Source: a virus (Duplodnaviria; Heunggongvirae; Uroviricota; Caudoviricetes). Taken from it: a stretch of DNA of 5,573 nucleotides. Under the pieces are notes generated by a model. It had not been told where the DNA came from. It saw only the letters and a list, made by a program, of their open reading frames with translations, and did not search any database. Below, piece by piece: positions 2,824 through 5,573 of the stretch (position 1 is its first letter; each line of letters opens with the position of its first letter). The position numbers and the translations under genes were made by a program. Location of the stretch: the IMG/VR virus record IMGVR_UViG_2526164693_000014; one strand, written 5' to 3'.

Positions 2824-3652
2824 GGTTTACCCCTTTGCTGACTGGTTTAACCTGCGCCCTGACGTGATTTACGTGACGGGCGAATTTCTGCTCCCACTGA
2901 ATCTGCGTAAACACTTTCCCCTCCGCTGCCCAGTAGTCCCGGAAGGCGGCAAGTTCAGCAGGTGTAAATTCTGTCTCCGGCAAAGCCATCCCCCACAACG
3001 CAGCCCGTCGTCGAAAATCCCGTGACGGATACCAGCTATCGCTCATCGGGAATTTTCCGATGGGTTCGCTCAGGCCATACAGGAATACAGGGGGGGCTGC
3101 CTGTAACGACAAAACTTCCTGCTCACTGGTCGGAGCACTCTCGCGTGCGTTATGTGTGGGGTTTAGATCTTTGGGTTCCTTTGGGTTCCGTGATCCGTTT
3201 TTGGGTGTCTTTGATGGAAAATTTGGGTGTCTTTGGTTATTTTCCATGCAGCTAAGAGTTCTGTTTTTGGGTCTGTTTTGTGCTGAAACATAACCATTTT
3301 CGGTACTGTTTTTATTAACAGCACCAATTTTACCCACCTTTAAAGACTCCCGTTTTTGGGTGTATTCAGGCTCGGCAACACTTTCTTCTACACCGATAAG
3401 TCGGTACACCACAATTTGCTTTGTTCTGCCTTTTCTCTCACCGGTATCAACAATTAACCCAATCTCCATCAGGTGTCGTAAGCTGTCCTGCACAGTCTTT
3501 TTGTTCAGTTCCGTTACTTCTGCCAGTGCAGATACAGACGGGTATGCACACAAATCGGCACCGCACATATCAGCAAGCCAGGTCAATACTGACTTACTGG
3601 ATGAACTGCCGGTTTTCACCTTTTTAGCCCATCGTAGTGCATCGATACTCAT
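2612..3652 (-). CDS. Replication initiator, lambda O-like: N-terminal HTH DNA-binding domain, low-complexity linker, C-terminal DnaT-like domain
   Basis: C-terminal region GKFPMSDSWYPSRDFRRRAALWGMALPETEFTPAELAAFRDYWAAEGKVFTQIQWEQKFARHV closely matches the E. coli DnaT C-terminal region as I recall it. Start set at ATG 3652 (MSIDALRWAKK..., G-rich RBS); the track's 3727 start would overlap the upstream gene further. Confidence 0.8.
   Translation of the reverse strand: MSIDALRWAKKVKTGSSSSKSVLTWLADMCGADLCAYPSVSALAEVTELNKKTVQDSLRHLMEIGLIVDTGERKGRTKQIVVYRLIGVEESVAEPEYTQKRESLKVGKIGAVNKNSTENGYVSAQNRPKNRTLSCMENNQRHPNFPSKTPKNGSRNPKEPKDLNPTHNARESAPTSEQEVLSLQAAPPVFLYGLSEPIGKFPMSDSWYPSRDFRRRAALWGMALPETEFTPAELAAFRDYWAAEGKVFTQIQWEQKFARHVNHVRAQVKPVSKGVNHAAAPGGTASRAVQEIRAAREQWERENGFISDGNGLEAVGTHGGGLFEPLDPEERGRTFEALDCTDWRDD
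3170..3365. repeat. Candidate origin of replication: iteron-like direct repeats (core TTTGGGT) with an adjacent AT-rich tract, inside the O-like linker
   Basis: Seen directly: tandem TTTGGGTTCC at 3170..3189; TTTGGGTGTCTTTG at 3200..3213 and again at 3222..3235 (22-bp register); TTTGGGTCTGTTTTG at 3266..3280; TTTGGGTGT at 3355..3363; AT-rich stretch about 3285..3340. Lambda ori is likewise iterons plus an AT-rich region inside O. Confidence 0.6.
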
Positions 3653-4175
3653 ACGCCCCCCTGGCAGACATTTGTTTATCTGCAAAGTAATATTGGTATT
3701 GCTGACGATACGCGTGCTTGAAAGCAATAGCTTTTTCTATAAGCTCGTCAGTCTCACGTTCCACAACAACTGGATCCGCAAAAAGCAGCCCGGACTCCAC
3801 CACATCGCCATATTCTTTGTTTAACCCGGCGATCATGTACGTAATGCTTTTTCCGTCAGTAATTTCACAATACAATCTGAAATCGCTGATCCGGATAGCC
3901 TCCATAATTGCCGGAATCAGCGCCGTGAATTTGTCACGCTTATCTCTGGTGTCGATAGCTTTCCAGCGTTCGAATATCTTCACCCGGTTAACGCCCAGCG
4001 CCCGTTGATCAACCTCGCCATCATTAAACGTGACGCGTTGAACATCGATGTTCGGGCGTTCTTTCAGAGCCCAGAATGCTTCCGTGATTAATATCGTCGC
4101 CTGCTCCTGTGTCATTCCTGGTCGGCATACCCAGGTATCCAGAGCCTCACAAACCTGTTCAGTGGTGATTTTCAT
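3624..4175 (-). CDS. YdaT-like protein in the cII position (183 aa)
   Basis: Sits between the Cro-like and O-like genes. The segment FTALIPAIMEAIRISDFRLYCEI resembles the Rac-prophage YdaT segment as I recall it; this is from memory and unverified. Overlaps the Cro-like gene by 17 bp and the O-like gene by 29 bp. Confidence 0.65.
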   Translation of the reverse strand: MKITTEQVCEALDTWVCRPGMTQEQATILITEAFWALKERPNIDVQRVTFNDGEVDQRALGVNRVKIFERWKAIDTRDKRDKFTALIPAIMEAIRISDFRLYCEITDGKSITYMIAGLNKEYGDVVESGLLFADPVVVERETDELIEKAIAFKHAYRQQYQYYFADKQMSARGAYEYRCTTMG

Positions 4176-4386
4176 TGTTCAACCGCCCCGCCCGCTTTGC
4201 CTTACGATATTCGTCATAAACTTTGGGGTCGTACTGAAGTTCCCCGCCGGATGCCTCTTGCAGGCGCATCGCGCGACCTTCAGGAACCAGTTCCCCCCAT
4301 GCAGCAACGCTTGCCAGCCTAACTCCTGCGACATTGGCAAGCTTTGTTTTGCTGCCAAAAAACGCTATAGCATCAATTTTCAACAT
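4159..4386 (-). CDS. Cro-like small DNA-binding regulator (YdaS/DicC-like, 75 aa)
   Basis: Divergent from the repressor gene across a 76-bp operator region; the pattern AGVRLASVAAWGELVPEGRAMRLQEASGGELQYDP fits the Cro/YdaS-type fold family; first gene of the leftward operon. Confidence 0.75.
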   Translation of the reverse strand: MLKIDAIAFFGSKTKLANVAGVRLASVAAWGELVPEGRAMRLQEASGGELQYDPKVYDEYRKAKRAGRLNNENHH

Positions 4387-4462
4387 ATCGAAACCCTTAG
4401 ATTTTCCTAAGGAAACTAGATCGTAGAGAAACCTAAGTCAAGAAAAATTAGAATTACCTAAT
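4387..4462. promoter_or_regulatory. Divergent operator/promoter region (OR-like) between the Cro-like and repressor genes
   Basis: Perfect inverted repeat CCTTAG-N6-CTAAGG at 4395..4412 and a third half-site CCTAAG at 4432..4437. Plus strand: -10-like TAGAAT at 4449..4454 only 8 nt before the repressor ATG, with no SD. Minus strand: TTGACT (-35) at 4441..4436 with a weak -10. Confidence 0.6.
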
Positions 4463-4870
4463 ATGAAAAACGAAACCTTCGGTGCTCGCCTCTTATACAG
4501 GCGAAAAAAATTAAAACTGTCTCAGGCCGCATTAGGTAAGCTGGTCAAAGTCGCTCACGTAACAATTTCTCAATGGGAAAGAGATGAAACACAGCCAGCG
4601 GGGAAGAGATTATTCGCACTGAGCCAGGCGCTTCAGTGCTCGCCGACTTGGCTTCTTTTTGGAGATGAAGATAAGCAACCAGGCGAACCGATCCCAGATA
4701 ATCAGCCAGTCAATCTGACAGAAGATCAAAAAGAGTTGCTTCAACTGTTCGACGCACTGCCTGAGTCAGAGCAAAAGGCTCTGTTGTCAGAGATGCGTGC
4801 TCGAGTTGAGAATTTCAACAAACTTTTTGAAGAACTACTCAAAGCTCGCAAAAGAAGCGCAAATAAATAA
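4463..4870 (+). CDS. dicA: Prophage immunity repressor, DicA-type HTH_XRE regulator (135 aa, cI functional analogue, no S24 peptidase domain)
   Basis: N-terminal HTH (LSQAALGKLVKVAHVTISQWERDETQP); CSPTWLLFGDEDKQP and the C-terminal NFNKLFEELLKAR tail match my recollection of E. coli Qin DicA; same length; divergent from a Cro-like gene. The symbol means DicA-family homologue, not necessarily the K-12 locus. Confidence 0.85.
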   Translation: MKNETFGARLLYRRKKLKLSQAALGKLVKVAHVTISQWERDETQPAGKRLFALSQALQCSPTWLLFGDEDKQPGEPIPDNQPVNLTEDQKELLQLFDALPESEQKALLSEMRARVENFNKLFEELLKARKRSANK

Positions 4871-4900
4871 CCCCCCTTTTTTTCGCAACTCTCTGTAATA

Positions 4901-4933
4901 AAAAGCACAAACTTTCAAATACTTGTGTTTTTT
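4901..4933 (+). terminator. Weak candidate intrinsic terminator downstream of the repressor gene
   Basis: Short stem GCACAA/TTGTG with a 12-nt loop followed by a T6 run, flanked upstream by an A-tract. The stem is short and AU-rich, so this is tentative. Confidence 0.3.
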
Positions 4934-4941
4934 ACATCAAG

Positions 4942-4998
4942 AAGCTTAGGTTTTTCTACACAAAAAGCTTGACCATAACTCTTAGGCTATTCTAAATT
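4942..4998 (+). promoter_or_regulatory. pL-like rightward promoter candidate with operator-like half-sites (OL-like)
   Basis: TTGACC at 4969..4974, then a 17-18-nt spacer and CTAAAT/TAAATT at 4992..4998. CTTAGG half-sites at 4945..4950 and 4982..4987, the second inside the spacer; same motif as in the OR-like region. Confidence 0.45.
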
Positions 4999-5133
4999 CT
5001 ACTCATCAAGACACCGCACGGTGTTCTCAGCAAACAGTTCCGCTACCCGGCGTTAAGGGGAAGCAGAGGATTTCTCAGTGGGCGAGTCAAACATCAGAAT
5101 GGAAGGCGTCCAGGGATCAGCAAAGAAACAGCG

Positions 5134-5433
5134 ATGGCGCTTTATATTGATATCAGCGCCATTGCCGGACAGGTAAGAGTTATCAGAGCGGTAACTAAGC
5201 GGTATGCGCCTTTACTTCAGAAAGTCTCTGGTGAGTGCACCGAAGATATTGTCAACGATTTCGTCATCGAACTGCGAGGACTCATCTTCAGTTACAAGGT
5301 GACCACAATTTTTGCAGATGGCTCCCGCGAAACTGTCAGAGCCCTGCGGCTTAAAGGATGTGTCAAAGACTTAGCCACCACATTCTGGGCAAGAAAACTT
5401 GATTGTATTCATAACCAATTTCCTCTCGAGTAA
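5134..5433 (+). CDS. Hypothetical protein (99 aa), first long ORF downstream of the pL-like promoter; coding status uncertain
   Basis: Only ORF of 60 aa or more on either strand in 4871..5505; weak RBS (AAGAAACAGCG); several rare AGA/GGA/CGA codons; no N-like arginine-rich motif; no family recognised. Confidence 0.4.
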   Translation: MALYIDISAIAGQVRVIRAVTKRYAPLLQKVSGECTEDIVNDFVIELRGLIFSYKVTTIFADGSRETVRALRLKGCVKDLATTFWARKLDCIHNQFPLE

Positions 5434-5505
5434 CAGACCCCTCAGAGGATACCACCTCGCCTGACGTGGTTAAAAAGCAGGCAACGCTAACCACAAGGAG
5501 CCGAC

Positions 5506-5573
5506 ATGCAGAAACGAGACCCCGTCATCATCGCGCCAGACTATACCGATGATGAACTTTATGAGTGGATGCA
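5506..5573 (+). CDS. Hypothetical protein, 3'-partial in window (start only: MQKRDPVIIAPDYTDDELYEWM...)
   Basis: ATG at 5506 preceded by AAGGAG with a 5-nt spacer; open to the right edge. Function unknown. Confidence 0.5.
   Translation, partial: MQKRDPVIIAPDYTDDELYEWM

Follow-up and report, generated by a model that had tools for sequence, protein, structure and literature searches.

The stretch of DNA analyzed here, which we call the window, is the 5,573-nt IMG/VR virus record IMGVR_UViG_2526164693_000014, and the locus of interest occupies its positions 4871-5573, beside a phage repressor gene. On the + strand, the gene for the 135-aa repressor is followed by a 99-aa open reading frame (ORF) and then by ydfC, and a cro-type gene diverges from the repressor gene (Table 1); the product of the gene in the cII position matches Pfam YdaT. 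Over positions 4400-5573, E. coli O157:H7 genomes (Sakai, EDL933 and hundreds of others) match at 100% identity and "PPompW" prophage records at 99.7%; in Sakai, the window lies in prophage Sp9, integrated beside ompW. We conclude, with a probability of roughly 0.85, that 4871-5573 contains the regulatory region and the two leading genes of a dicBF-type early-left (pL-type) operon in Sp9, a Qin-like lambdoid prophage. The original prediction for this locus, made from the sequence alone, recognized a lambdoid early-left region beside a repressor gene, and that assignment is upheld, as is the presence of every feature it listed at the position given. Its view of the locus as the likeliest place in the window for something undescribed does not survive, as the locus proves to be the promoter-proximal part of a dicBF-type operon whose second gene is ydfC. 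The locus is thus already known in kind, and it is ordinary apart from an uncharacterized, frameshifted small gene and an apparently undescribed conserved leader RNA.

Table 1. Coordinates of the features at the Sp9 locus and of the adjoining regulatory genes (numbering of the window).
Feature	Position	Strand	Description
cro-type gene	4159-4386	-	75 aa, divergent; Pfam P22_Cro
DicA-type repressor gene	4463-4870	+	135 aa; ECs_1765, annotated phage repressor
AU-rich hairpin	4899-4934	+	12-bp stem, 12-nt loop, ends in U run; inverted repeat I9
Operator-like palindrome CTTAGGTTTTTCTACA	4945-4960	.	Just upstream of -35; CTTAG-N6-CTAAG with 2 mismatches
Sigma-70 promoter	4969-4998	+	TTGACC (4969-4974), 18-bp spacer, TAAATT (4993-4998); 9/12 matches
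Operator-like palindrome CTTAGGCTATTCTAAA	4981-4996	.	In promoter spacer, overlaps -10; 1 mismatch
Conserved 5' leader element, short type	5004-5062	+	59 nt, four parts
Leader, part 1			AUCAA at the 5' end
Leader, hairpin 1	5010-5015 with 5020-5025		Loop GCAC
Leader, linker and invariant segment	5037-5045 (invariant segment)		Linker CAGCAAACA, then invariant GUUCCGCUA
Leader, hairpin 2	5046-5048 with 5057-5059		CCC pairs with GGG; invariant loop GGCGUUAA (5049-5056)
Ancestral translation start	5066-5080	+	GAGGA (5066-5070), 7-nt spacer, GTG (5078-5080)
Out-of-frame 32-codon ORF	5078-5176	+	From GTG 5078; product of the 1-nt deletion
99-aa ORF	5134-5433	+	ECs_5719 / WP_001240336.1; annotated "hypothetical"
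ydfC, ribosome-binding site and first 22 codons	5495-5573	+	AAGGAG (5495-5500), ATG 5506; runs off window end

The repressor shares 63% identity with DicA of E. coli K-12 and matches Pfam HTH_3, a helix-turn-helix (HTH) family, at 4e-14; in a Pfam search it had no match to the autocleavage domain Peptidase_S24, the HTH domain being its sole assignment. The cro-repressor intergenic region contains three copies of a 16-bp palindrome of the form CTTAG-N6-CTAAG (4396-4411, 4422-4437 and 4447-4462), and two further operator-like copies lie at the promoter beyond the repressor gene. The window holds six matches to this palindrome against 1.66 expected, and five of the six fall within the two regulatory regions. 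The promoter-like element noted in the original prediction is a sigma-70 promoter by sequence, for which the transcript start is predicted near A5005, and the K-12 promoter at the aligned position reads TTGACC-17-TAATCT. From this alignment, the Sp9 promoter is the predicted positional homolog of K-12 dicBp, the pL equivalent. Conservation with K-12 Qin and with other phages starts exactly at the predicted transcript start (5004); together with the clustering of the palindromes, this exceeds what chance would give and supports the promoter region being real. Because the operators overlap the promoter, the two genes that follow should be silent in the lysogen, and by analogy with K-12 the Sp9 promoter would be off in that state. 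The K-12 operators likewise lie in the dicA-dicC intergenic region and at dicBp, and deletion of dicA raises dicBp activity 22-fold (bioRxiv 10.1101/2023.04.14.536235).

The genes that follow identify the operon. The second gene starts 73 bp after the last base of the 99-aa ORF stop, behind the strong ribosome-binding site that had been noted for it. Completing this partial gene with flanking genome sequence, a check proposed at the outset, yields a 72-aa YdfC that is identical to K-12 YdfC at 68 of 72 residues (94%), falls in PHROG 1744 and is named ydfC in RefSeq; the product is uncharacterized in the searchable literature, PMC5069750 included. In the parent genome, ydfC is followed on the same strand by a 135-aa gene, DicF, dicB, a DUF1482/ydfD-type gene, an exonuclease gene, xis and int, with an antisense 77-aa ORF between the 135-aa gene and DicF. 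The Rfam match to DicF is full length (43.5 bits, E = 1.9e-7). Apart from ydfA and ydfB, the arrangement expected of a dicBF-type operon is present: a DicA-type HTH repressor gene lies immediately upstream and diverges from a Cro/DicC-type gene, an operator-covered promoter, with binding predicted from sequence, separates the repressor gene from the first gene, and ydfC, DicF, dicB and the ydfD-type gene follow. Several dicBF copies in O157 prophages, the operon content and the DicF terminator have been described previously (PMC5069750). Outside the window, a weak Rfam match to the small RNA (sRNA) family STnc100 covers the DicF-dicB spacer (L001 11254-11459; E = 2e-4, at 32 bits where the gathering score is 47). 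The word GGCGTTAA, which recurs between dicF and dicB, was dropped as a candidate element, being too frequent and having no hairpin context.

The 99-aa ORF poses a start-site puzzle that the original prediction had correctly identified. The sequence before ATG 5134 (AGCAAAGAAACAGCG) contains no Shine-Dalgarno element, and frame 1 is open for 46 codons, from TAA 4993-4995 to 5133, with no ATG, GTG or TTG. Comparison with relatives accounts for both features. A GTG preceded by a Shine-Dalgarno sequence lies 57 nt upstream of ATG 5134, and a 1-nt deletion between 5085 and 5086, after the third codon, changes the GGCGAAGTC of relatives to GGCGAGTC in Sp9. The native GTG is thereby shifted out of frame, and this is why the open frame lacks a start codon. 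In five independently sampled alleles (L011, L013, L015, L017 and L019), the start is in frame, as GTG in four and as ATG in L013, and GAGGA stands 7 nt before the start in four of the five, with GGGGA in L017. All four loci of the P0005 cluster (L021-L024) also have the GTG in frame, and L023 has CTG at the position of the internal ATG. The 5' segment of the ORF is found in 937 complete E. coli genomes, 291 of which match the deletion allele at ≥99% identity; the deletion-allele rows sampled were mostly O157:H7, and all sampled matches at 97.7-98.8% identity span 86 nt rather than 85, as expected of the intact allele. The leader of about 130 nt described earlier is accurate for the distance from A5005 to ATG 5134 (≈129 nt), whereas the functional leader in intact relatives, up to the ancestral GTG, is ≈73 nt. 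On these alignments, the 99-aa ORF is what an N-terminal truncation has left of a 118-aa gene from an orphan prophage family; with its poor ribosome-binding site it is probably weakly expressed or silent.

The intact gene belongs to a small family of its own. Many gene calls in the family are 118 aa long and start MGEVKHQNGRRPGISKETAM. The 99-aa ORF aligns end to end with PHROG 21318, a family of unknown function (E = 4.6e-67, residues 1-99 on profile positions 1-99 of 99), so that the earlier statement that neither product belongs to a recognizable family holds for the first ORF, with its unnamed PHROG, and fails for the second, which is YdfC. The family comprises 24 clusters at 90% identity, and an exhaustive hidden Markov model search of 1.84 billion representatives matched this family alone, with 10 representatives at 50% identity. 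Searches of Pfam, NCBIfam and PADLOC with the 99-aa ORF gave sub-threshold noise, and PADLOC at E ≤0.1 gave no defense model for the ORF in its 99-aa or 118-aa form, for YdfC or for the next two products. The profile and fold searches that had been proposed assigned no function: a PDB profile search found nothing better than E = 0.2, and a Foldseek search of the ORF model against BFVD returned no match at E ≤0.001. Two AF2 models of the ORF reached a predicted local distance difference test (pLDDT) score of 68.5 and then 80.8, the latter with the topology b-a-a-b-b-a. Kinship with lambda CII was rejected (hhalign probability 0.6%).

Conservation of the family points to a real protein-coding gene. 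Homologs in Klebsiella and Citrobacter phages are ~60% identical, 93 aa long and preceded by a strong Shine-Dalgarno element, and the ratio of nonsynonymous to synonymous substitution rates (dN/dS) in comparison with them is 0.3-0.4, with dS saturated in the first half of the gene, which shows purifying selection between the genera. More distant relatives, at ~36% identity, retain the length and a VTT-ADGS...R.LRYRG...F...FW motif. Counting from the repressor gene and pL, members of the family come first in many E. coli-type prophages and in distant relatives, and the Klebsiella and Citrobacter homolog sits right after cro, in the cII position of the rightward operon (L005-L009, 6001-6282); these positions suggest an immediate-early gene. 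The same Klebsiella/Citrobacter phages have no YdaT- or CII-type gene in the cII position. N-termini in the family include MALYIDIS, MGEVKHQNGRRPG and MMTTLRVD, and none is arginine-rich. As a separate observation, a 42-nt block at 5266-5307 (ATCGAACTGCGAGGACTCATCTTCAGTTACAAGGTGACCACA; also 5312-5343) shows no synonymous difference between the E. coli and Klebsiella copies, in a gene that elsewhere shows ~60% protein identity between the two, and dS is ~0.3 in the second half against >1 in the first half. This pattern points to a possible nucleotide-level element embedded in the gene or to a recombination junction. Our best guess, by analogy with its neighbors, is that the orphan protein would be a non-essential early accessory protein that modulates the host.

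The second distinctive feature of the locus is the leader itself. Positions 5004-5062 share ~97% identity with the K-12 Qin leader, even though the promoter and operators differ between the two prophages and the downstream genes are unrelated. By blastn, this element occurs in 2818 of 5426 complete E. coli genomes, in up to five copies each and with sharp ends at 5004 and 5062, so that it is conserved at ~95-100% identity across roughly half of the complete genomes of the species. Phages mEp460_ev081, HannyBb and PhiR42_1 carry it as well. O157:H7 genomes carry three to five copies of the short leader and two copies of the ORF 5' region. All short leaders start with AUCAA and place a hairpin at the same position, and across phages this first hairpin is built from four unrelated stems (ACACC/GGUGU, GCAC/GUGC, ACAGC/GCUGU and ACAACGA/UCGUUGU). 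Single-sequence folding energies of the leader are unexceptional (z of 0.8 to -1.9). A search of Rfam at E ≤1 with the leader type of the window gave no relevant match, and a literal search of papers for the leader sequences found nothing.

The 3' part of the leader behaves as a module in its own right. The sequence GUUCCGCYA and the hairpin with loop GGCGUUAA also close a different leader of ~150 nt in other Qin/Rac-type phages, and the module stands before differing first genes, namely ydfA, a 44-aa gene or members of the 99-aa ORF family. A pattern scan of IMG/VR in which the stem positions were left free recovered 120 loci, with the stems CCCC/GGGG, CCC/GGG, CCCU/GGGG, GCCU/AGGC and GCCU/GGGC. 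Among the distinct variants of hairpin 2, 97% of cells pair, two of the four pairs are compensatory (CCCC/GGGG vs GCCU/AGGC), and 19 of 500 shuffles do as well. As a control, we applied the same pattern to genome contigs, where matches are mostly chance ones in unrelated phyla and were used solely for this purpose: 79 of 121 had no stem pairs at all, whereas 117 of the 120 phage matches had at least three. A covariance model of the module finds one match per phage, always in the pL leader and at 44-50 bits. No second, nutR- or putR-like copy was found in any phage tested (next best ≤13 bits, nothing on the pR side), and mismatch searches of 19 kb of Sp9 likewise gave no second copy. Overall, the leader is a widespread, conserved and apparently structured RNA that apparently has not been described anywhere.

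The alternative leader of ~150 nt is itself conserved and is found in many Qin/Rac-type phages (L011 2865-3026, L012 2880-3034 and L025 2492-2652, and also L013, L015, L017, L019, L021, L024, L026 and L027). It has a C-rich start (CCCACCCCGCCCC), a core AAGUAGCCAGCCCGAGGCG and the same GUUCCGC-hairpin module at its end. RNAalifold supports one compensatory pair of 39 in this leader type, and Rfam at E ≤10 gave no relevant match for it. A conserved GAGG-N9-AUGACGGC resembles the start of a short leader peptide; the peptide was dropped as a candidate on account of inconsistent frames and stops. An ops-like word was also dropped, as it lay on the wrong strand. In distant prophages that carry the ORF family (L268 4890-4990, L269 3985-4085 and L270 1865-1915), the leaders also start CAUCAACAGC(G/A)AACAG, and two of the three have a AAGUAGCC.CCCGAGGCG.AUGAA core in common with the long leader type. 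Lambda pL RNA starts AUCAGCAGGACGC...CAUGAAGG. The like starts suggest, at the level of sequence, a common ancestry of lambdoid pL leaders.

The placement of the two genes in the position of rexAB, on which the original prediction built its interpretation, is not borne out. Both lie downstream of the operator-covered pL-type promoter, and the true rex-type moron slot is the interval of ~100 bp from the repressor stop to the -35 element (4871-4968), which is empty in the window except for a weak terminator. The AU-rich hairpin in this interval folds at -9.2 kcal/mol in its 74-nt context (z = -3.7), and none of 200 shuffles folds as well. Its G-C pairs were too few for a simple terminator scan to pick it up; it is probably a weak terminator of the repressor transcript. 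In relatives, the same slot holds PaaA2/ParE, HigB/HigA or a YedD-like gene (L015 2031-2509, L019 3228-3705, L017 3057-3721 and L268 4171-4578). Elsewhere in the window, iteron-like direct repeats (3170-3366; TTTGGGTGTCTTTG and relatives, at least six copies) lie inside an O-type replication gene on the minus strand and are probably the prophage replication origin.

Taken together, these features suggest how the operon would work. In the lysogen, the DicA-type repressor would bind the two 16-bp operators that bracket and overlap the sigma-70 promoter and keep the operon off. Since the repressor lacks an S24 domain, induction is expected to proceed through an antirepressor rather than through RecA-mediated cleavage, as in K-12 Qin, where it runs through the antirepressor Rem (bioRxiv 10.1101/2023.04.14.536235). 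Derepressed transcription would start near 5005 with the conserved two-hairpin leader, cross the orphan small gene, ydfC and the 135-aa gene, and continue through the DicF sRNA with its terminator to dicB, the ydfD-like gene, the exonuclease gene, xis and int. Its leading gene is a cassette that replaces K-12 ydfA-ydfB, and the intact form of this gene is predicted to be a soluble 118-aa protein translated from a GTG with a good Shine-Dalgarno element. In O157:H7 Sp9, the 1-nt deletion after the third codon disconnects this GTG and leaves the 99-aa ORF with its poor ribosome-binding site.

Several points weigh against this account or parts of it. The K-12 operon genes ydfA and ydfB are absent, no homology to K-12 is seen in the stretch from the leader to ydfC, and an unrelated ORF fills the ydfA-ydfB place in Sp9. 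The DicF match, at 43.5 bits, is below the Rfam gathering score of 48 bits. The Sp9 start site and its repression would follow by homology with the K-12 system. The 99-aa form has a gene annotation in RefSeq, and ATG 5134 may be used for translation. Within E. coli, the dN/dS of the ORF is 0.5-0.9, so that constraint on the protein is weak or uneven.

Three other explanations were considered. The original prediction favored lysogen-expressed cargo for superinfection exclusion or anti-phage defense, with both genes in a rexAB-like slot, and we now consider this improbable: the genes are on the far side of an operator-overlapped promoter and not between repressor and promoter, neither matches a PADLOC model, the native start of the first gene is lost in this strain, and the Klebsiella/Citrobacter homolog sits in a lytic pR operon after cro. 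These points outweigh the presence of a PaaA2/ParE, HigBA or YedD-like moron right after the repressor gene in relatives and the fact that neither product has a known function. The phage resistance known for this operon type acts through DicB (PMC6832061), whose gene lies outside the window. That the 99-aa ORF is a chance open frame in an untranslated region, with no gene behind it, is the least probable of the explanations considered and is largely refuted for the family. Such a reading would fit the poor ribosome-binding site, the lack of a start in the open frame upstream, the high dN/dS among E. coli copies and the absence of a known domain, but it does not fit homologs at 36-63% identity that retain length, frame and C-terminal motif across genera, nor the dN/dS of 0.3-0.4 (dS being saturated over the first half of the gene), the strong Shine-Dalgarno element of the Klebsiella copy or the AF2 pLDDT of 80.8.

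A further possibility is a new antiterminator in the N position: the ORF family would act on the leader hairpin, as a nutL analog, and let RNA polymerase read through the DicF terminator. The spacing is suggestive, with CGCUA from +37 and a hairpin from +42 to +56 in Sp9 against boxA from +34 and boxB from +49 to +63 in lambda, counted from the established lambda pL start site; the protein is ~100 aa long and its gene is the first behind pL both in E. coli-type prophages and in ~36%-identical relatives, and dicB, xis and int can be reached only past a terminator (PMC5069750). Yet first genes unrelated to the family (ydfA and the 44-aa gene) stand behind the same leader module, the leaders of distant homologs lack this module, and in every phage tested it matched once, with nothing resembling a nutR copy. 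The protein is predicted to be folded, and its gene is frameshifted in Sp9. N-type antiterminators have an arginine-rich N-terminal RNA-binding motif and are largely disordered; the absence of such an N-terminus from either product had been noted in the original prediction and is confirmed here. This absence, and the occurrence of the family both with and without the conserved leader module, argue against an N-like partnership between protein and leader, which we regard as very unlikely.

A broader proposal would treat the leader as an undescribed cis-acting RNA of N-less Qin/Rac-type pL transcripts and the orphan family as a new early regulator; as a joint claim, this is possible but rather unlikely. 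Under it, the leader could be a single-site processive antiterminator or an element that protects against Rho or RNase, letting transcription pass the DicF terminator to dicB, xis and int. Because the DicF terminator stands ahead of these genes (PMC5069750), a read-through or stabilizing role for the leader is a reasonable guess, and our best guess for the leader taken alone is a cis-acting RNA that aids survival of the pL transcript or read-through of the DicF terminator. How transcript stability or read-through is controlled in the dicBF operon is unexplained, and the leader is an obvious candidate for that role. Assignment of the locus to that operon has a wider consequence, in that a supposedly unknown repressor-adjacent region of a heavily sequenced pathogen turns out to be the head of a well-studied operon type, one that makes the DicF sRNA and the division inhibitor DicB, which also blocks phage entry. 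The promoter-proximal cassette of this operon is exchangeable, and the O157 Sp9 version of it is a frameshifted copy of an orphan gene that comes first in the early-left region of many enterobacterial prophages.

With lambda rexAB and other repressor-linked morons, the locus has the chromosomal neighborhood alone in common: rexAB is co-transcribed with cI upstream of pL, whereas the Sp9 genes lie beyond the promoter, so that by position they fall outside cargo of the RexAB type, which lies between the repressor gene and pL. The resemblance to lambda pL-nutL-N is closer, as both have an operator-controlled leftward promoter by the repressor gene, a transcript that starts AUCA, a CGCU word and a short hairpin ~35-60 nt from the start and a small first gene of ~100 aa. 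Unlike lambda, however, Sp9 has no N homolog or arginine-rich motif and no nutR-like second site was found in it, its loop is the invariant 8-mer GGCGUUAA rather than a GNRA-like pentaloop, and the match to boxA is limited to CGCU. The paired cis sites, one per early operon, that define the N/nut and put systems were thus not found, nor was the arginine-rich N-terminus of the N type in the ORF family. HK022 putL begins at the transcript 5' end (PMC9378689), and Sp9 is similar in having a conserved structured RNA with two stem-loops within a few nucleotides of the pL start, in phages that lack N and have terminators inside the early-left operon. The two RNAs show no sequence similarity by eye, the Sp9 stems are 3-6 bp instead of long bulged stems with a triple helix, and a putR-like second copy is absent. 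The closest counterpart is the K-12 Qin dicBF region (dicA-dicC immunity, dicBp and ydfABC-dicF-dicB-ydfDE). Sp9 differs from it in having an unrelated ORF (118 aa when intact, 99 aa here) where K-12 has ydfA/ydfB, in the extra 135-aa gene and antisense 77-aa ORF after ydfC, in immunity specificity, with a 63% identical repressor and different operators, and in the retention of xis and int at the ompW site. The two nonetheless have in common a divergent pair of DicA-type repressor and Cro-type genes, operators of the TTAG-N6-CTAA type, a TTGACC promoter at the aligned position, a nearly identical 59-nt leader start, a ydfC that is 94% identical, and DicF, dicB and a ydfD-like gene downstream, followed by the exonuclease.

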